A stretch of DNA of 64,000 nucleotides, taken from the IMG/VR virus record IMGVR_UViG_3300046777_002520, positions 32,001 through 96,000 of that record, one strand, 5' to 3'. The position numbers and the translations under genes are program-made. The notes beneath the pieces are model-generated. The model saw only the letters and a program-made list of their open reading frames with translations, did no database searches and was not told the DNA's origin. Of the stretch, positions 1,553 to 62,003 are shown in pieces (position 1 is the first letter of the stretch; each line of letters starts with the position of its first letter). This stretch comes from a virus.

Positions 1553-1861
1553 ATGAGTGGTGAGTGGGTAACCTGGCATTGTTTAGAGTGTAACATTACC
1601 TTGCCAGGCAGCAGAGTTTCTGACGAGTGTGTTGGCTGCAGGCTAAAGGCTGAAAACGCCAAACTGAAAGAGCAACTCCGTTGGCACAAGTGGCCAGAGG
1701 AAAAGCCAGAAACCAGCGGACGTTATCTAGTCCTGACCGACGGCTCGACTGATATTAACGAACATGTCTCATACTTCAGCTTAAGCCTCGGATGGTCTAC
1801 ATCTGACGCAGGTATAACTTACTGGAGACAAATAGGCCCGCTGCCGGGAGGGGAGTTATGA
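1553..1861 (+). CDS. DUF551-like phage protein
   Basis: C-terminal WHKWPEEKP...YLV...W...ITYWRQIGPLP pattern; N-terminal CxxC pair. Confidence 0.6.
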   Translation: MSGEWVTWHCLECNITLPGSRVSDECVGCRLKAENAKLKEQLRWHKWPEEKPETSGRYLVLTDGSTDINEHVSYFSLSLGWSTSDAGITYWRQIGPLPGGEL

Positions 1862-1986
1862 AAGAGCAAACCTTGAGTGATGTCATGCAGTTGATTTCAG
1901 CGTGGACTAAAACAGACAACGCTGACGAGATTGCGGTGATTAAGTCTTGCATCTTTGAAGTATTGCAAGAGGAGAGTGAGCGATGA
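1858..1986 (+). CDS. Small hypothetical protein (42 aa)
   Basis: Not in the ORF track. MKEQTLSDVMQLISAW...EESER; ATGA overlaps at both ends; GGGAG RBS. Confidence 0.6.
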   Translation: MKEQTLSDVMQLISAWTKTDNADEIAVIKSCIFEVLQEESER

Positions 1987-2129
1987 CTGGTGACGACCTC
2001 GGCAGAGAAATGGCAAAAGTGTTTTTTATAGTCGCTACTGTAATCTTTTTGTCTGGTGTTTTTACAGTAATAGCGGCTCAGACAGTGTGGCCGTTTATTA
2101 AAACTTGGATTCACTGGGCCACAGGCTGA
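1983..2129 (+). CDS. Small single-pass membrane protein (48 aa)
   Basis: MTGDDLGREMAKVFFIVATVIFLSGVFTVIAAQTVWPF...; ATGA coupling; GAGGAG upstream. Confidence 0.6.
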   Translation: MTGDDLGREMAKVFFIVATVIFLSGVFTVIAAQTVWPFIKTWIHWATG

Positions 2130-2145
2130 CTTTTGGAGGCCTCAG

Positions 2146-2400
2146 TTGGTAAACCTAAAAAAGCTGTTCCAAAGAAAATGGGACAAGCTGTACTTCTTGA
2201 ACAAAAAAGACATAGGAGTCAAAACACACAAATGCTCTGAGCCAGGCTGCAGGCGATACTGCCTTCCAAAGTCTTACGGCTGTATCGAGCATTGCGGTAA
2301 GAGCTACAAACGCGTGGTGAGTAAGACAAAAGCATGTTTGTCTCTTTCCAAACATAGGAGTAAGCGACGTGACAAACGGAGAGCTGCAAAAGCTGTTTAG
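2146..2400 (+). CDS. Hypothetical basic Cys-containing protein
   Basis: TTG start after GGAGG; CSEPGC...C...C cluster. Confidence 0.5.
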   Translation: MVNLKKLFQRKWDKLYFLNKKDIGVKTHKCSEPGCRRYCLPKSYGCIEHCGKSYKRVVSKTKACLSLSKHRSKRRDKRRAAKAV

Positions 2401-2680
2401 TGCCTGCAATGACAGCTGGTTGCATTTGAAAGAGAAGAAAGACGAGATTGAGAGTAAGTGCGAGAAGCAGGCATCTGACGCTGTTACTCTTCAGGAAGAG
2501 AACAGCAAACTCAAGCTGGAGGTTCTGCGACTGCAGTACCTTCTGCGCTACCATTCCGCAGCTTGCACAAGCTGTGACGGCACTGGGATCATCCCTCCTG
2601 TTTATGCCGACTCGTTCCAACTGCACGCTTGCACGTGCCCCTGTCACAAAGAAAGTGGTGTGAAGTATGTCCAAGGTTAA
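2369..2680 (+). CDS. Coiled-coil protein with CxxCxGxG zinc finger
   Basis: CTSCDGTG and CTCPC motifs; AGGAG RBS. Confidence 0.6.
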   Translation: MTNGELQKLFSACNDSWLHLKEKKDEIESKCEKQASDAVTLQEENSKLKLEVLRLQYLLRYHSAACTSCDGTGIIPPVYADSFQLHACTCPCHKESGVKYVQG

Positions 2681-3011
2681 TTACTCTGACCGTCGCCGCA
2701 ACAAAGTCCTGCCAGTCACCAATCCGACTGAGTCGATTACTCATATTCGATATGTGCTGTGGTTCTCGTACGGCGATGACGGCGCTCGTGGCTACAATCT
2801 GTCGGTCATGCCTGTCCAGCACTCCAACGGCTTTGAGATCACCATGGCTTTCTCTGGCTATAGAATGATTCTGGAAAGGACTACTGGCAAGTTTAGCCAG
2901 AAGAAACTAAACGCGCACTGGGAAGAGCTGCACAGCAACCCAGCTATCTTGGACGAGCTGATCGCCAAGATCTGCGAAAAAACCCAGACTGGGGGCGTGA
3001 TCAAGGAATGA
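2667..3011 (+). CDS. Hypothetical phage protein
   Basis: ORF coupled to both neighbours. Confidence 0.6.
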   Translation: MSKVNYSDRRRNKVLPVTNPTESITHIRYVLWFSYGDDGARGYNLSVMPVQHSNGFEITMAFSGYRMILERTTGKFSQKKLNAHWEELHSNPAILDELIAKICEKTQTGGVIKE

Positions 3012-3526
3012 GCACTGACGATTTCTTCTTCAGACCAGAGTCAGACGATAGTCACTCGTTTACCAGCGAGGAGAAGATCGTCAAAGCCATCCTCAAGGCT
3101 GCAGACGCTTCTCAGTACTTCAAGACACTTCTGGCAGAGTGTCGCGAGGAGACTGGGGTCAACGCTGTGAATCTTGGCTGGTTCGTTACCAAGTATCCCA
3201 GCTTTCCTATCTGGCTGGGTACGCGCAAGGTGGAGTGGCAGCGCGATGTCTTCGGGCATCTGCTTAAACGCTTCACCAACACGCCATGCTTCAAGGCCTG
3301 GGAAGAAGTGGACGAGGCAAAGCCTGAGGATGACAGCAGAAGCGCAGGTTGTGTTTTTACCTGGCCTTCCTTTGGCATCTGCTGCATTCACCAGTACAGC
3401 CCGTCCTACCTGGCCAATGCCGACGGCATCTGGATAACCAGGAAGCTGCCCAGCTTTGAGGAGAGGTTTGTGATTGAGCCGTTATCTCAACTGCTCAAAA
3501 CCCTGGCTTGGCAATTCCCAGGGTGA
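3008..3526 (+). CDS. Hypothetical protein
   Basis: ATGA overlap; 172 aa. Confidence 0.65.
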   Translation: MSTDDFFFRPESDDSHSFTSEEKIVKAILKAADASQYFKTLLAECREETGVNAVNLGWFVTKYPSFPIWLGTRKVEWQRDVFGHLLKRFTNTPCFKAWEEVDEAKPEDDSRSAGCVFTWPSFGICCIHQYSPSYLANADGIWITRKLPSFEERFVIEPLSQLLKTLAWQFPG

Positions 3527-3529
3527 CGC

Positions 3530-4669
3530 ATGAACAAGCAGCTTGCCTTAGACGCCACCCATGTCTTTTTCGACCAGAACAGGCTGTCGAGTTTGAGAGA
3601 CGCCGTCTTTGACCTGGAAAAGAACACAGCCACGTTTGTTCTTGACGGTACTCAGCAAGTGGCGCTCACTCAAAACTTTACGACAGTCGGAGGCATGTCG
3701 AAGCTGACTTGGGTGGCTCTAAGGCAACTCTGCAACTCTTTGTCCCCAGGGTTCTACAAACTGATAACCGACCTGTGCGGACGCAGCTTCAGCAAAAAAT
3801 CGGACAAGGTGACCTATTCCAACCAGGACGCCTTGTCTGTTTACAACACGGTATTGAACCGACGCTTTAGCCAGGCTGTTGAACGTAAGTTGATTCTCAA
3901 AAACATAAAGACGAATGTTATAGATGCGGTCCTTACCCAACAGAACAACCGTATTCCTCTGGCTGACTTCTACAAGGCCGTGAACCCTAGACAAAAGCCA
4001 GAAAACGGTACGTGCTACAGTAAAGACTTTATTTTCAAGTCTGCTGATCTGTCAGACAGGAAGCTGTCTATTAAGTTGGTACCAGACAGCAAGAACAAAG
4101 AGTATTCTTTCAAGGACCTTACGTTCAAAACTGGTATAGTGTTTACGCACAGCGAGTATTCAGACAACCACACTTCGGTTGGAGTCTTTGTTTGTTTTGA
4201 TGATAATAAGTTTGCTATAGACAAAGCTATAAAGGCAGACAAGGGTACAGACATAGAAGCAAAAGTGCAAAAGCTTACCGAGACTGTAGCTAAAAGGGTA
4301 AAAGCCTTTGAGGGCTACAGGCTTATCTCTATGCTGGAAAGGCTCGAAGAAACCAAGCTTGGGTTTACTGCAGAGTTCAATGACAACAAAACTCACAAAG
4401 ATACTGTTGTGAAAATACTTTGCAAGGCTAAACTAAGACCGAAGATCGCTGAACGTGTCGTCACGGCGACACTTGTTTCAGGATTAGCCAACCAATCCTT
4501 TTCAGCTCTGGCCACTAGCAGCAGCGAGACTTGGCCTGGCAAATCCGCTTTTGACCTTTTCAAGGCCTTGCTGGCAGAAAGCGTCAAACCTATTTACGAT
4601 AAGCCTGCCCGAGACAACATAGAGCAGGTTTTATTCAGGTTGTTGTTAGGAAAGTTGAAGTTCACATGA
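3530..4669 (+). CDS. Hypothetical protein (weak DUF932-like resemblance)
   Basis: 379-aa ORF; LTWVALRQLCNSL resembles DUF932-type N-termini (recollection only). Confidence 0.55.
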   Translation: MNKQLALDATHVFFDQNRLSSLRDAVFDLEKNTATFVLDGTQQVALTQNFTTVGGMSKLTWVALRQLCNSLSPGFYKLITDLCGRSFSKKSDKVTYSNQDALSVYNTVLNRRFSQAVERKLILKNIKTNVIDAVLTQQNNRIPLADFYKAVNPRQKPENGTCYSKDFIFKSADLSDRKLSIKLVPDSKNKEYSFKDLTFKTGIVFTHSEYSDNHTSVGVFVCFDDNKFAIDKAIKADKGTDIEAKVQKLTETVAKRVKAFEGYRLISMLERLEETKLGFTAEFNDNKTHKDTVVKILCKAKLRPKIAERVVTATLVSGLANQSFSALATSSSETWPGKSAFDLFKALLAESVKPIYDKPARDNIEQVLFRLLLGKLKFT

Positions 4670-5583
4670 GCGATAACGCAGTTGTTAGCAAAAGCAACAC
4701 AAAACTTACGACCATGAACGAGAACCTTTTCAAGATCTATGAGCAGGAGCTGGCCGAGCGCAGCATCATGCTGAGGCGCAACCTGCGCTTCCACAGGGAT
4801 CGCGGCAAGGTCATCCATCGGGTCAAGAGCGGTCGGAGTCTTGACGGTAAGACAACCGTGGACTACGGCCAGAACCCTGTCGAGGTGTTGGCAGACAGCC
4901 TGGGTGTCAGCCGTTCTTACGCCTACAAGCTCTCCACTTTTTACGAGATCTACCAGGACAACGAGAAGTTCCAGGACCTGCTGGACAGCTTCGACAGCAA
5001 GAGCTTTGACCTGTCCTGGTCCCACTTCAATTGCCTTGTCCACGTCAAGGACGAGGCTGTGCGTGAGGAGCTGATCGAGCAGGCGCTGGAAAACAAGATG
5101 TCTGTGCGCGCTCTGCACGAGCTTCTCAAGAGCAAGCGCATCGTCGTCGATGACGATGAGGTCCTCTCTGACGACTCTGGTGACGCGGCTCTGGAGGCGG
5201 CTCCAGCTGCGACAGGTCCTGTCGAGATGACCCAGCCAGAGCACGTCTCTGACGAGGAGACCGAGGAGGAAGAGGCTGAAGGTCTGCCAGAGGCCCAGGC
5301 TGTCCCCTCCGCTTCCGACTGGACTTCCTCTGACAACCCCAAGATTGTTTTGCGCAAGCTCGTCACGGCAGCCGCCAAGTTTGGTGACAAGCTTGTCGAG
5401 CTGGTTGGCGACCTGACGATCTCGACCAACGAGATCCACGGTTCCAGCTGCGACAAGGACACTCTCAAGGGGCTGGAGTCTTCTGTAGAGGTTCTGGAAT
5501 CTCTCAAGCTGCAGGTTGGCGAGTATCTTGAGCAGGTCCAGATCATTCAAAACAGGCTGACTACCGAGAAGCGCAGCAAGTAG
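4666..5583 (+). CDS. DUF1016_N (YhcG N-terminal)-like DNA-binding protein with acidic linker
   Basis: LSWSHFNCLVHVKDEAVREELIEQALENKMSVRAL matches the LSWSHY...D..AR..Y...A....WSVREL pattern; followed by an acidic region and a coiled coil. Confidence 0.55.
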   Translation: MSDNAVVSKSNTKLTTMNENLFKIYEQELAERSIMLRRNLRFHRDRGKVIHRVKSGRSLDGKTTVDYGQNPVEVLADSLGVSRSYAYKLSTFYEIYQDNEKFQDLLDSFDSKSFDLSWSHFNCLVHVKDEAVREELIEQALENKMSVRALHELLKSKRIVVDDDEVLSDDSGDAALEAAPAATGPVEMTQPEHVSDEETEEEEAEGLPEAQAVPSASDWTSSDNPKIVLRKLVTAAAKFGDKLVELVGDLTISTNEIHGSSCDKDTLKGLESSVEVLESLKLQVGEYLEQVQIIQNRLTTEKRSK

Positions 5584-5591
5584 GAGTAGAT

Positions 5592-6290
5592 ATGTCAGAC
5601 AGAAAGTTTACTGTCTGCGCTCTTCTCTACGGCAACTACCCAGACCTGGCTCGCAGATGTCTCGAACCACTCTTCGAGCTCTGCGGGTCAGGCAGGGTAG
5701 ATCTGCGCGTAGGTATGAACGAGGCGTGCCAGGAGACTAGGGACTACGTCGCAGGCAGCGCTTCTGAGAACGTTGAGGTTATCTCAGCAGATCCGCAGAT
5801 TCTCAAGTACCCCATGATGCGGCGTCTGTTTTACGACAAGCCGATCACTTCTGACTATGTTATGTGGTTTGACGATGACTCTTACGTCAAAGCCGACAAC
5901 CTGGAAGATTGGTTAGACGACATAGAAAAAGCTATGTTGTCGTGCGATATGCTAGGTTCTGTTTACACCATAGGTTACACGCCTTCGCAGAAAAAATGGT
6001 GTTCAGAACAACCGTGGTATTCTGGTAAAGTCATTCCAGACAGACCACAATTCGCAACTGGCGGTTGGTGGTGCTTAAAGACTCAAGTTGTCAAGACTTT
6101 CAACTGGCCCATACCTGAACTGCAGCATTGTGGCGGTGATGTCGCCCTGGGTGTTTTGCTTCACCAGCAAGGTTTGAAGCTAAAGCATTTCAGGGAAGGC
6201 GTAGCTATCAATGCCAATGCAGAAGGCAAAGAGTCAGCAGCTGAACGTCGTGGCGCTAGCAAAACCGCCAAACCCATAGGCAGGCTGTGA
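5592..6290 (+). CDS. GT-A fold (GT2-like) glycosyltransferase
   Basis: VMWFDDDSYV DxD motif; GGWW and GGDVALG motifs. Confidence 0.65.
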   Translation: MSDRKFTVCALLYGNYPDLARRCLEPLFELCGSGRVDLRVGMNEACQETRDYVAGSASENVEVISADPQILKYPMMRRLFYDKPITSDYVMWFDDDSYVKADNLEDWLDDIEKAMLSCDMLGSVYTIGYTPSQKKWCSEQPWYSGKVIPDRPQFATGGWWCLKTQVVKTFNWPIPELQHCGGDVALGVLLHQQGLKLKHFREGVAINANAEGKESAAERRGASKTAKPIGRL

Positions 6291-29420: not shown

Positions 29421-33547
<4,127 letters not shown>

Positions 33548-58709: not shown

Positions 58710-59619
58710 TCTAGACGCACCAGAGTTTGCACAGGGCTGGGTAAACGATCCTCCTGAAGTAGAGGCTATCGTAGCCCTGCAGCCCTACAAGACTTTCTCT
58801 GATACAGAAGCAGGCAAGTTCATGCCTGCCTCTGATCTGCCCAAAAGCGTTTACCTCTGGGACGCTGCCAGAAAGGTTTTGGGTAAACTGCTACCCCCAA
58901 GAAGCCAGGGAAAAGTGGGCAGCTGCGTGGCTTTCGGCTGCTGTAGGGCCGTCGAATACACGATGTTGGCCGAGATCGCAGCAGGCGAAAACGAAGAATT
59001 TCGTGACCTCTGCACCGAGGTTAACTATGGCGGCGGGCGTATTGAAGTAGGTAGAGGGCGTCTCGGTAGAGGCGATGGCTCTATCGGCGCGTGGAGCGCA
59101 GAGTTCGTCAAGCGCTGGGGCTCCATCGATAGAGCTGTATATGGTAAGTACGACTTGACCAAATACAGTGAAGAACGATGTAGGGCTTGGGGAGCGACTG
59201 GAGTTCCAGATGATCTTGAGCCTGAGGTCAAGAAGTATCCAGTAAGCACCATCACGCTTGTCACAACCATTGAAGAAGCTAAGAAAGCACTTGCAGCTGG
59301 CTACGGTATCTCTGTAGCTAGCGGTCAAGGCTTTACTTATACAAGAGATAGCAATGGTATATGCGCTCCCAAGGGTTCTTGGGCGCACCAGATGTGCATC
59401 TGCGGCTACACGGAGATCAACGGAAAGCTGTATTTCCGTATCGACAACAGCTGGGGCGCAGATACTCACACAGGGCCTACAGGCCCAGGTAATCCTGGTC
59501 CAGAAGGTTTCTACGCCAATGGTGACACAGTAGCCAGAATGCTTGCGCAGAAGGACTCGTTCGCTTACGCTGGCGTGAAAGGTTTCGTACCACGCAACAT
59601 TATCGACTGGTTCGTATGA
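58702..59619 (+). CDS. Papain-like (C1) cysteine peptidase
   Basis: QGKVGSCVAF (oxyanion Gln and catalytic Cys), WAHQMC (His), DNSWG (Asn). Confidence 0.85.
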   Translation: MADLDAPEFAQGWVNDPPEVEAIVALQPYKTFSDTEAGKFMPASDLPKSVYLWDAARKVLGKLLPPRSQGKVGSCVAFGCCRAVEYTMLAEIAAGENEEFRDLCTEVNYGGGRIEVGRGRLGRGDGSIGAWSAEFVKRWGSIDRAVYGKYDLTKYSEERCRAWGATGVPDDLEPEVKKYPVSTITLVTTIEEAKKALAAGYGISVASGQGFTYTRDSNGICAPKGSWAHQMCICGYTEINGKLYFRIDNSWGADTHTGPTGPGNPGPEGFYANGDTVARMLAQKDSFAYAGVKGFVPRNIIDWFV

Positions 59620-59972
59620 TGTACCCCTATCCAAAGCAGTACCCTTCAGATGCCGTCAAACTGCTCATTGACTATGTGAGCCACGGAGACGAGTTTCTGG
59701 AAAAGAAAGACGCCATCCACGCTGGCTGGGTCATATCTGGGTATGCTTTGGGCAGGATATTCGGCGGCGGTCCAGAGATCATCGGTAAGAAGTTTAGAGC
59801 AACCAAGGTTCCTGTAGCCAAGTTAAAGCGCAAGGAGTTTCTCGAAAAGCTTTCCCAGTCTGTCGCTTACGGCAGCGTGAACAAGTTCGAGCAAACCAAC
59901 CCAAGCTGCTGGTTGCACCTAAACCAATTAGCGAAAGAAATGTTAAATGTTTACAAAGAATCAGCTGGGTAA
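59616..59972 (+). CDS. Hypothetical protein
   Basis: ATGA coupling. Confidence 0.6.
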   Translation: MMYPYPKQYPSDAVKLLIDYVSHGDEFLEKKDAIHAGWVISGYALGRIFGGGPEIIGKKFRATKVPVAKLKRKEFLEKLSQSVAYGSVNKFEQTNPSCWLHLNQLAKEMLNVYKESAG

Positions 59973-60162
59973 TCATCTGATTATAGACGGTGTAGATACA
60001 CCTATAGATCACAATATTGCCCTCAGGTGGCACATGTCGCCTGAGGGCAAGTCTATTCCCACGCTGTACAAAAACGGTAAAAGAGTCACCAAAGCCTGGA
60101 CTATGGTTTACGCATATCTATCGCTAGAAGATCCGAACGGTAGCAACGCTAATACAAACTAG
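59947..60162 (+). CDS. Small hypothetical protein
   Basis: 71-aa ORF overlapping the upstream gene by 26 nt. Confidence 0.5.
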   Translation: MFTKNQLGNHLIIDGVDTPIDHNIALRWHMSPEGKSIPTLYKNGKRVTKAWTMVYAYLSLEDPNGSNANTN

Positions 60163-60167
60163 GCGTA

Positions 60168-60196
60168 TTGCTGCGACTGTCTCAATGACTTATAAT
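60168..60196 (+). promoter_or_regulatory. Sigma70-type promoter
   Basis: TTGCTG (60168-60173)-N17-TATAAT (60191-60196). Confidence 0.75.
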
Positions 60197-60202
60197 TCAA
60201 GC

Positions 60203-60446
60203 ATGTTGTGCGAAGGCACACCCAATATCCAAGCGTCGGTGGTGTCTGTTCGTTCTGCTTAGTCGAAGGTGCCGATTGGTTAGGTTTGGCTAAGTTTAGC
60301 CTTACAGGTGGACTTCTTGGACCGCAAGCCAGTAGTCAACGGTGGAGTGACACGGAGCACCTAAAACCTGTCACTGTTCCGCTTTAGCGGACACGGACTT
60401 CAGCCAGGGGATCTGAAGGGGTAGTTACAGAACAGACACCACTCGA
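60203..60446 (+). ncRNA. Candidate structured RNA (multi-branched, kissing loop), class unknown
   Basis: 13-bp perfect long-range helix 60239-60251/60430-60442 encloses five or more hairpins; loop-loop complement AGGTGC/GCACCT; no ORF of note. Confidence 0.65.
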
Positions 60447-60462
60447 AGAAAGGAACTGGGCT

Positions 60463-60801
60463 ATGGCGCACAATCACGACGAAGAGATGGCAGAGCTTAC
60501 AGACAAGCTTGTTGACGGCCTGCTCAACAACGAGGAGTTGGCCAGCATAGAAGACCAGATACAAGACGACGGAGACGTTTGTGAAAGCGATCTCAAGTCT
60601 CTTTTCCAAGACCTTATCAGTCTTCGCTACAACTACACGATGGAGATGGTGTCTAAGAACATAGCCAGCTATCTTCTCAGACCCAAGAAGACGCCAGAAC
60701 AAGCTCTTAGGGATTACAAGAAAGTTGTCTTTCTCTCAAAGTTCCTGCTAGCGGAAACGCAGAAGGCCCTCGATGACGAAAAAGAAAACTTCGAAGATTG
60801 A
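60463..60801 (+). CDS. Acidic hypothetical protein
   Basis: AAGGA RBS directly after the RNA closing stem. Confidence 0.65.
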   Translation: MAHNHDEEMAELTDKLVDGLLNNEELASIEDQIQDDGDVCESDLKSLFQDLISLRYNYTMEMVSKNIASYLLRPKKTPEQALRDYKKVVFLSKFLLAETQKALDDEKENFED

Positions 60802-60970
60802 TAGACTAGCCGCCCTTGAGAAGGAAAACGCCAGGCTGCGTAAGGCTCTGTCCAAGCTGATAAGCACCTGGCGCGATCATGATCATGTTTACGGCGAAGC
60901 TTGTTTCGACGCCTGCCAGGCTGCTAAAGCTGTTTTGGAAGGAACGAGCAACAAGCTCACAGGTCGCTGA
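60773..60970 (+). CDS. Small coiled-coil protein
   Basis: RLAALEKENARLRKAL heptads. Confidence 0.55.
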   Translation: MTKKKTSKIDRLAALEKENARLRKALSKLISTWRDHDHVYGEACFDACQAAKAVLEGTSNKLTGR

Positions 60971-60977
60971 GGTTGAG

Positions 60978-62003
60978 ATGTTTAACCCAATTCTTAGCGA
61001 TAAGACAATCGTCAAGCTGAGCCAGGCTTACGACAGCATGGCTTACAACCTGGGCGAGGCCGCCGCGCTGCTGAAAGAGGCAGCCGTTAAGACACACGCC
61101 CTGTCTGGCGAGCTGTACGGCTCCTCCAAGGGAGCCTTGCTTCTCAGCGTGCCCAACTCTCTGGTGCGAGGAGCCTTCTCAGCCCTCGATGAGAACGGCC
61201 TGGTGCTGCCCAACCAGGGCAAGTTCAACGCTCACATTATCGTCATGACGCCTGAAGAGGTGTCCAAGATCGGCGGCTTGACCAAGGTCACCGAGCGCGG
61301 CAAGCACTTCCACTATAATCTGGGACCCTTGCACGAAGGACCAGTCACCAACTCCTTTGACTTCAGCAAGGTCTGGTTTCTGTCCGTGACGAGCCCAGAG
61401 CTGGCCCAGCTCAGAAAGACGTACGGGCTGGACAGCGGACCTGGCAAGCACGGCTTCAACATCGTGGTGGCGTTGCGCAAGCTGGGCGTGCTGGGAAGAA
61501 ACGAGATCAGCAAGCTGGCTGGTGCGGATGTCCTGCCAGGCGGCAAGGCTGACGACCTGCCTGACTCCAAGTTCGACAAGAAGAAGCTGGAGCACGCGCA
61601 GAAGCATGAGATGGAACACACCAACAATCCTGCCATAGCCAAGGAAGTCGCCAAAGACCATATGGTCGAGGACCAGGATTATTACCCAAAGGTGGAAGTC
61701 ATGGAAAAGAACAAGGCAGCGGACAAGCTAATGGGCTTGCTCGCCAAGAAAGCATATGTCGGGAACGGTACGAGGCAGGAGTCAGATGCCGAAGTCGTCA
61801 CGCCTGCTGCGGAAGATATTGCTTTCCTTGGCAGTAAGCCTTCAAAGCCCGAGCCAAAGCCAGTCGATAACAACAAGAACAAAGCCAGTATTCGTAAAGC
61901 GTTTATTGAAGCGACGAAGGATACTGTTGGAGTGGACCCGTCTTTGAAGTCAGCTTCGTGGAACGAAGTTCTGCAAAAGCTGAAGGAGCTTGGCAAAAGC
62001 TGA
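60978..62003 (+). CDS. Degenerate 2H-phosphoesterase-like domain fused to a DUF5661-like module
   Basis: NAHIIVM and GFNIVVA at the two HxT positions; GGKADD...EMEHTNNPAIAKEVAKDHMVEDQDYY module. Start ATG 60978 after GAGGT. Confidence 0.5.
   Translation: MFNPILSDKTIVKLSQAYDSMAYNLGEAAALLKEAAVKTHALSGELYGSSKGALLLSVPNSLVRGAFSALDENGLVLPNQGKFNAHIIVMTPEEVSKIGGLTKVTERGKHFHYNLGPLHEGPVTNSFDFSKVWFLSVTSPELAQLRKTYGLDSGPGKHGFNIVVALRKLGVLGRNEISKLAGADVLPGGKADDLPDSKFDKKKLEHAQKHEMEHTNNPAIAKEVAKDHMVEDQDYYPKVEVMEKNKAADKLMGLLAKKAYVGNGTRQESDAEVVTPAAEDIAFLGSKPSKPEPKPVDNNKNKASIRKAFIEATKDTVGVDPSLKSASWNEVLQKLKELGKS

Follow-up and report, generated by a model that had tools for sequence, protein, structure and literature searches.

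Riboswitches usually control genes that act on related small molecules, and the lysine and cobalamin riboswitches are among the known RNAs closest to the phage RNA described here. Common to both are a length of about 170–220 nt, a multi-helix junction closed by a P1 helix, a kissing loop between two hairpins, conserved bases in the junctions and a place in the 5' leader of an operon that encodes an enzyme for small phosphorylated molecules. The phage RNA differs from them in showing no sequence or model similarity (Rfam), in having no recognisable expression platform and in its longer P1. With Y RNA and YrlA and their partner Ro (Rsr) it shares a long stem that joins the two ends (P1, 14 bp and covarying, a feature not specific to Y RNAs), a structured upper domain and RNA-end-processing enzymes encoded nearby (2H phosphoesterase, PhoH), whereas it has neither a tRNA-like module (ARAGORN) nor an Rfam match. 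Identity as a Y RNA was rejected, as PF05731 (TROVE/Ro) was unmatched in the 192-kb genome while control genomes scored, and RtcB was absent too. The put RNA of HK022 and EAR are likewise folded RNAs that lie at the start of a long operon or close to it and need no expression platform; the phage RNA is several times larger, lacks sequence or model similarity to them and gives no sign of polymerase contact.

Complementary loops are also known from other phage-associated RNAs. The loops of phi29 pRNA pair between molecules. For GOLLD and ROOL, a preprint describes assembly into rings or cages through intermolecular pairing of complementary loops (bioRxiv 10.1101/2024.12.08.627333). The present RNA is phage-associated and has complementary loops as well, their pairing being known here from covariation. 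It is much smaller than GOLLD and ROOL, is neither located at the end of a genome nor adjacent to a packaging motor or to tRNA clusters, and has no match to a model of any of the three.

The window analysed is a stretch of 64,000 nucleotides, positions 32001–96000 of a 191,966-bp IMG/VR phage record (genome ~192 kb). The structured RNA, of about 210 bases, is encoded on its + strand at 60238–60443. It folds into eight helices (P1–P8) and a loop-loop pseudoknot, with the closing helix P1 stacked on P2 and leading to a junction that bears hairpins P3 to P8; about 30 unpaired bases are conserved, in the linkers GGUUAGG, GG[U/A]GG and YCGGA and in the P8 loop AGGGGAU. Covariance model R1, described below, finds exactly one copy in the phage's own genome and one per phage in its relatives. 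That this is a real, conserved and previously undescribed family of structured RNAs we regard as practically certain. Judged from strong comparative support, the family is a new one of a known general kind, the structured leader or non-coding RNA. An earlier note, made from the letters of the window, had proposed here either an unclassified non-coding RNA or a leader of the operon starting at 60463; the RNA is indeed real and conserved, and lies between a footprinted promoter and the 60463 RBS. On rereading of the sequence, every helix listed in that note was found in its place, and the RBS that it put just past the closing stem is the AAGGAA 7 nt after P1. The features of the locus are as follows.

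60168–60196, + strand: promoter-like site, TTGCTG (60168–73), 17-nt spacer and TATAAT (60191–96); read in the sequence
60207–60220, + strand: small 5' hairpin TGTGC-GAAG-GCACA, about 4 nt past the expected transcription start; read in the sequence
60238–60251, + strand: 5' strand of the closing helix P1, partner 60430–60443 (in the earlier reading 60238/9–60251 with 60430–60442/3); covariation
60255–60260, + strand: 5' strand of P2, CUGCUU, partner GGGUAG at 60419–60424, with two conserved U-G pairs; 99.4% paired
60261–60277, + strand: P3 hairpin, 5-bp stem AGUCG/CGAUU, 7-nt loop L3 AAGGUGC (60266–72), a kissing partner; 100% paired
60278–60284, + strand: unpaired conserved linker GGUUAGG; alignments A8 and A10
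60288–60301, + strand: P4, variable hairpin GGCUA/UAGCC; read in the sequence
60311–60337, + strand: P5 hairpin, loop A-N-C-N-CAA-N; covariation
60338–60345, + strand: conserved linker AACGGUGG, family-wide GG[U/A]GG; alignments
60346–60375, + strand: P6 hairpin AGTGACA/TGTCACT, loop L6 (60356–66) with GCACCU (60357–62), the second kissing partner; covariation
60378–60391, + strand: P7 hairpin UCCGC/GCGGA; double changes at 5 of 5 pairs, 91% paired
60392–60397, + strand: conserved linker CACGGA, family-wide [U/A][C/U]CGGA; alignments
60398–60418, + strand: P8 hairpin CUUCAG/CUGAAG, conserved loop CC-AGGGGAU; 99.7% paired
60419–60443, + strand: 3' strands of P2 (60419–24) and P1 (60430–43); as for the 5' strands
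60450–60465, + strand: Shine-Dalgarno AAGGAA, 7 nt past P1, and start codon of the next gene (ATG, 60463); read in the sequence
60463–60801, + strand: conserved acidic helical protein of 112 aa, first gene 3' of the RNA in the window's clade only; alignment A6
60978–62003, + strand: 2H-SAK + DUF5661 protein, its gene family always downstream of the RNA; PF22547, PF18905

Homologues and covariation of the fold

The 2H-SAK/DUF5661 protein encoded downstream has metagenome homologues on syntenic contigs, and these provided the route to homologues of the RNA. The shared gene order is papain-like protease, two small ORFs, the gap, an ORF of ~100 aa, an ORF of 65 aa, 2H-SAK/DUF5661, a C39-like peptidase and PhoH. 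RNAalifold predicted 58 pairs from six sequences, and 21 of these showed double changes; R1 (229 positions, 54 pairs) was built from those six. The model matched the RNA in all syntenic relatives, one copy each, and in a 12-sequence set 95.6% of cells were paired, with double changes at 34 of the 54 pairs. Among 59 distinct sequences, aligned by fitting to the model so that pairing is somewhat inflated, 96.0% of cells were paired, compared with 35–45% when the partners were slid, and compensatory double changes were seen at 49 of the 54 pairs; none of 500 shuffles reached any of these measures. The earlier note had named covariation in homologues as the check on its fold, and the compensatory changes at these 49 pairs bear the fold out. 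When 28 distant members were aligned with MAFFT, the same helices appeared.

An alignment of diverse 2H-SAK proteins (A7) yielded 80 IMG/VR loci, mostly on contigs of 150–235 kb. R1 matched 69 of them, always on the strand of the gene and 0.45–1.3 kb upstream. A second model, R2, was built from the 28 distant members only, with the window's clade left out; it recovered the window RNA at 60238–60452 (32.2 bits, E 5.7e-9) and added three further loci. With both models the RNA was detected at 72 of the 80 loci and at 8 it was not, an association measured in one direction only, as the loci were chosen by their 2H-SAK gene. The carriers are more than 70 uncultured jumbo phages of ~170–235 kb.

Other searches returned little. 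Blastn with the region as query matched none of 50,697 phage records, and no cultured phage in the phage collection had a close homologue of the neighbouring genes. Searches for close relatives in IMG/VR with the 374-aa and 112-aa proteins and with the 2H-SAK protein of one distant locus (L148) gave nothing. The pattern GTCGANNNNGCCGAYTGGTYAG produced mostly chance matches (one true match of nine in IMG/VR, and four among the 80 metagenome loci listed, 110 stretches having matched), and CWGNNAGGGGATCWGNNGGGGTA a single chance match. Three loci picked by a ~50% identical C39 peptidase (L142–L144) were discarded as carriers, being different phages; no RNA was detected in L142 with filters off, nor in any of the three with R2. 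RNAduplex was tried for locating the ends of P1 and set aside, as it over-extended the duplex into the A/U-rich flanks, and its counts of −10 boxes and U-tracts were left unused.

In the 59-sequence alignment, P1 carries compensatory changes at all 14 pairs, with 95.6% of cells paired; in one relative (L137) its sequence is entirely unlike that in the window and yet fully complementary. The two wobbles at the top of P2 (alignment columns 31/427 and 32/426) are U-G in 52 and 44 of the 59 sequences, respectively. Double changes were also found at 4 of 5 pairs in P3, whose loop covaries with L6, at 9 of 9 in P6, where the partner of L3 is always at the 5' edge of the loop, and at 5 of 6 in P8, the sequence GGGGAUC being present in nearly all members. 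P5 showed them at 8 of 9 pairs among the 17 sequences with the window form; distant members have a different hairpin there. The length and sequence of P4 vary, and in distant members it is larger, with the loop CAGGGAUG. The linker after P3 matched GGU[UCA]AG in every member examined and GGUUAG in nearly all. Ahead of the RNA, the 60207–20 hairpin keeps its stem while its loop varies (GAAG, GGAT, TGTT), and this only among the four closest relatives. A switch between alternative partners, which the earlier note had suggested, found no support in the family: the segments concerned, ACAGGT and AGGTTT, occur in the closest relatives only (A4).

The pseudoknot joins the 7-nt loop of P3 to the 5' edge of the P6 loop by 5–7 bp. 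In the window the pair is AGGUGC (60267–72) with GCACCU (60357–62), a kissing loop already noticed as complementary in the earlier reading; the contact covaries and was kept in 58 of the 59 sequences, by way of more than 15 different complementary loop sequences. Examples are AGGAUGC/GCAUCCU, AGAACGC/GCGUUCU, GAGUGC/GCACUC, AGGUGU/ACACCU, GUGGC/GCCAC, GCGGU/ACCGC, GGCGC/GCGCC, GACAC/GUGUC and UGGCGU/ACGCCG. The mean number of Watson–Crick pairs between L3 and L6 was 4.9, versus 3.4 for shuffled loops. A kissing-loop pseudoknot is thus strongly supported by the comparison of loops, which fits pairing within a molecule and between molecules alike.

Known families, strand and coding potential

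The 4227 models of Rfam 15 gave no match at gathering thresholds over the whole window, and none even at E ≤ 10 over 60000–60600; ARAGORN called no tRNA or tmRNA gene in the window. The description of the RNA as unclassified in the earlier note therefore stands. The RNA in nine related loci, distant members included, fell into no Rfam family, the best sub-threshold score being 21.7 bits for engA in one locus (L175) against a cut-off of 46. The genome has four tRNAs only, all at its ends. A retron was considered too, and no reverse transcriptase was found in Pfam scans of the eight flanking ORFs, which comprise a papain-like protease, 2H-SAK/DUF5661, a C39 peptidase, PhoH and others without a family. 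In the literature we found no mention of DUF5661, 2H-SAK or such an RNA in jumbo phages.

The + strand of 60200–60462 has a minimum free energy of −98.5 kcal/mol (z = −3.35), and its reverse complement folds equally well (z = −3.56). Since the minus strand folds as well, thermodynamics alone decides nothing, and covariation in homologues is decisive. Wobble pairs are conserved among the 59 sequences, U-G at the top of P2 and G-U in P3 and P1; they are compatible with the + strand only, as they would be A-C mismatches on the other, and the RNA was assigned to the + strand accordingly. The gap that holds it is more conserved than the flanking genes in the relatives compared, and its differences are compensatory.

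The statement in the earlier note that no ORF exceeds 19 codons is true for ATG starts; with a GTG start there is a frame of 59 codons at 60208–60387, which is not conserved. Core lengths range from 198 to 227 nt, with differences that are not multiples of three, and most lineages have stops in every frame. Gene callers place ORFs over the RNA region in four relatives (L007, L008, L137, L150), and as no frame is conserved these calls are taken to be artefacts. Recoding of the in-frame TAG at 60385 was dismissed, there being no suppressor tRNA, no conservation of the frame and 1-nt indels. The folding of the minus strand, the GTG frame and the ORF calls are what could be cited for a chance fold, a small coding gene or something that acts at the DNA level (an origin, for example, or a protein-binding palindrome). 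These readings are extremely improbable: double changes at 49 of 54 pairs together with a covarying pseudoknot exclude them, the G-U pairs are strand-specific, no frame is conserved and the region is more conserved than its flanks.

Promoter, leader and downstream operon

Upstream of the RNA, the earlier note had seen a near-consensus promoter. Both hexamers and the 17-nt spacer are present, although TTGCTG matches TTGACA at only three of six positions and the site was not called by a consensus promoter scan; nor is the motif overrepresented in the genome (3 found, 2.2 expected). Both hexamers are, however, invariant in the four closest relatives (L003, L007 and L051 are cited), where the spacer is variable. 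In L013, L041, L010, L136, L139 and L137 the pattern TATTGC[TGC]G-N17-TA[TCA]AAT comes directly after the stop codon that ends the upstream 71-aa ORF. The window RNA has this phylogenetically footprinted promoter on one side and, on the other, the RBS for the gene at 60463, so that physically it is the 5' leader of the operon in the window phage.

From promoter to RNA the window has 41 nt, with the small hairpin. Elsewhere this stretch is 146–260 nt, or it contains one extra ORF (L136, L139, L146) or three genes including a SNF2 helicase (L150). Six independent insertions, from 100–220 nt extra up to one to three ORFs, all lie in the promoter–RNA interval, and none was seen between the RNA and the next gene in the window's clade. 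In that clade the ORF starts 16–33 nt past P1 in 13 of 13 members, and the RBS lies 3–12 nt past P1 in 13 lineages; in distant members the next ORF starts 25–75 nt past P1. A search of 59500–61000 found no intrinsic terminator, and inspection by eye of the window's clade and the distant members found no conserved segment that would sequester the RBS or compete with P1.

Of 46 distant members, 33 have an A/T-rich hexamer (TATAAT, TAAAAT or TAAACT, often after TGn) that ends 0–3 nt before P1, and in eight more TGATAAATT precedes a 5' hairpin that in some is comparable to that of the window. In many, a U-rich run directly follows P1. Transcription cannot start at the usual 7 nt past the box, as the outermost pairs of P1 still covary; either a phage polymerase starts right at the box or the box belongs to the RNA.

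The RNA is on the same strand as the 2H-SAK operon, and upstream of it, in every case. The protein at 60978–62003 matched PF22547 at 1.7e-6 and PF18905 at 5.9e-6 (Pfam), and its gene probably starts at 60978, as homologues are 341–353 aa long. This 2H-SAK ("Swiss-army-knife") protein is a mosaic of 2H and DUF5661, to which some phages add NUDIX, acylphosphatase or pyrophosphatase. The enzyme is poorly understood and is a candidate for RNA repair or anti-defence. It follows the RNA in all members, whereas the first ORF differs. The 112-aa protein (60463–60801) matched no Pfam or PHROG family; the first ORF of L148 encodes 226 aa unrelated to it (hhalign), and in distant members it encodes a hydrophobic protein of ~125 aa (A9 consensus, judged by inspection). 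The 112-aa protein was accordingly dropped as a universal partner of the RNA, the hhalign probability against the L148 ORF being 0.4% and the distant members carrying the hydrophobic ORF in its place.

Possible roles of the RNA

Of the roles considered, we rate highest, though tentatively and with somewhat less than even confidence, that of a cis-acting sensor or regulatory leader of the 2H-SAK operon. The folded RNA would act in cis, its conserved core binding a factor whose occupancy would set the expression level of the downstream operon, by way of access to the RBS 7 nt past P1, of transcript elongation or of transcript stability. Either a protein or a small molecule could be the factor, the latter derived from a nucleotide and related to what the phosphoesterase acts on. 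The rating is based on the invariable orientation, on the RBS that adjoins the RNA in the window's clade, on the insertions being confined to one side and on the chemistry of the enzyme: its domains hydrolyse nucleotide-derived molecules, and riboswitches commonly stand in such a relation to the genes they regulate. Features of a riboswitch found here are the covarying aptamer-like fold and the same-strand position upstream of related genes (72 of 80 loci). Several observations count against a cis leader: a conserved expression platform was looked for and not seen, be it a terminator or a sequence able to pair with the RBS or compete with P1; the long stable P1 (14 bp, plus 6 bp of P2) is unusual for a switching helix; the first ORF is non-homologous across the family; and free stable RNAs, too, typically have their two ends joined by a helix. 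As the next ORF of distant members is 25–75 nt past P1, direct occlusion of the RBS cannot be general.

Nearly as likely as the cis leader, and a real possibility, is a discrete, stable RNA that acts in trans or as part of an RNP. It would be released from the operon transcript, having a promoter of its own and being terminated or processed at the foot of P1. It could serve the phosphoesterase, PhoH or a host nuclease as a partner or scaffold, or act on one of them as a decoy or a mimic of its substrate; as a variant, it might form a multimer joined through the L3–L6 loops, with which the covariation is equally compatible. The terminal helix that joins the ends, the compact, ornate fold with its conserved tertiary contact, the unconserved first ORF and, in distant members, the promoter-like hexamer or TGATAAATT with its hairpin before P1 and the U-rich run after it all speak for a free RNA, and the position between ORFs in L136, L139, L146 and L150 would be tolerable for a processed one. 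However, no terminator was found in 59500–61000 of the window or in its clade, the strict same-strand site before an RBS and the lack of insertions between RNA and gene suggest coupling, and the genome encodes no TROVE/Ro or RtcB partner. An element of the put/EAR kind, binding the transcribing host or phage polymerase so that it reads through terminators along the operon, would account for a place at the head of or inside an operon at whatever distance from the next start codon, and would need no expression platform, of which none was found. We consider it improbable, given that the scan of 59500–61000 identified no terminators to override, that the conserved bases have no link to polymerase and that known elements of this type are much smaller than the window RNA. 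Exposed GGA motifs could also make the RNA a target or sponge of a CsrA/RsmA-type global translational repressor. GGA is present in three conserved unpaired elements, namely the P8 loop AGGGGAU and the linkers GGUGGAG and CGGAC, as well as in the Shine-Dalgarno AAGGAA; the P4 loop of distant members, ACAGGGAUGU, has it too and equals the SELEX consensus ACARGGAUGU (A10). This role is nevertheless very unlikely, since the P4 motif is confined to distant members and missing from the window's clade, and a rigid, conserved multi-helix fold with a pseudoknot is unlike Csr-type sRNAs, which are loosely structured arrays of GGA hairpins.

Returning to the cis leader, a narrower and distinctly doubtful version would make the RNA a phage riboswitch for a nucleotide-derived signal of infection, turning on an operon whose multi-headed phosphoesterase destroys that signal. 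Candidate signals are 2',3'-cyclic nucleotides or RNA ends, the cyclic oligonucleotides of CBASS or type III CRISPR, the ADP-ribose-derived signals of Thoeris and (p)ppGpp. On an equal footing with this version, the loops may pair between molecules and the RNA may be a homo-oligomer. A leader that senses a nucleotide signal would mean that the phage reads the state of its host through RNA, and in the narrower version the virus would sense host immune signalling directly in this way; a free RNA would add a viral RNP. New RNA folds of this size with a proven tertiary contact are rare, and among orphan motifs of the past some were later recognised as ribozymes, RNP components or new classes of riboswitch. 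The range of this RNA is limited to one large group of jumbo phages, none of them cultured, in which it is tied to the 2H-SAK phosphoesterase. The covariance models also serve as annotation that strips false ORF calls of the kind seen in four relatives.

Gene calls and insertions around the RNA

In public gene calls for four loci related to the window, ORFs of 139-197 aa span the structured RNA and are fused in frame with the next gene; the corresponding frame in the window is broken by a single TAG (60385-87). These calls are artefacts.

Called ORFs over the RNA
L007:2146-2739
L008:4563-4982
L137:5338-5829
L150:4239-4775

The interval from the conserved promoter to the RNA is a hot spot for insertions. 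Unrelated ORFs of 121-228 aa occupy it in L136, L139 and L146; in L150 it contains DUF6321, an ORF of 167 aa and an SNF2 helicase.

Insertions in the promoter-RNA interval
L136:4796-5215
L139:5039-5404
L146:3545-4231
L150:1444-4167

An intein lies within the papain-like protease gene of L137 (2638-4635), and several relatives have inteins or LAGLIDADG domains in the downstream ribonucleotide reductase gene (downstream ends of L008, L135, L137 and L139).

The downstream 2H-SAK protein

In the 2H domain of the window's 2H-SAK ("Swiss-army-knife" 2H phosphoesterase) protein (60978-62003), the sites of the two catalytic H-x-T/S motifs read H-I-I-V and N-I-V-V. H-x-S/T is retained at both sites in the distant homologues P0026-P0036 and in the L148 protein, as judged from an alignment of diverse 2H-SAK proteins (A7). 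From these residues, the enzyme of the window phage may be inactive or repurposed; the RNA is conserved despite the altered motifs. The longest 2H-SAK ORF (374 aa, window 60879-62003) overlaps a conserved 65-aa ORF (60773-60970). Because homologues are only 341-353 aa long, the true start is probably 60978. In L195, a tRNA gene (3345-3416; Rfam tRNA, 71 bits) separates the 65-aa ORF from the 2H-SAK gene.

Sequence elements of distant loci

A CTCTTTGACAA box is conserved in L175 (2560-2640), L185, L227 and other distant loci, where it is followed by a palindrome or hairpin and precedes the A/T hexamer adjoining the RNA by 40-50 nt. This box could be a second promoter or an operator. In L172, L175 and other distant loci, the P4 loop reads (A/G)CAGGGAUG(U/C), matching the CsrA SELEX consensus ACARGGAUGU; this loop is not present in the window's clade. 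Two genes upstream of the RNA, distant phages encode an actin-like protein (L214:992-2029; Pfam Volactin, 2.6e-60).

tRNA genes and genome ends

The tRNA genes of the window phage genome (G000:C1) number only four: Arg-TCT, Ile-TAT, Met and Thr-TGT. All are located at the record ends (1845-5771 and 191859-191930), which suggests that the genome is circular or permuted, with these ends joined.
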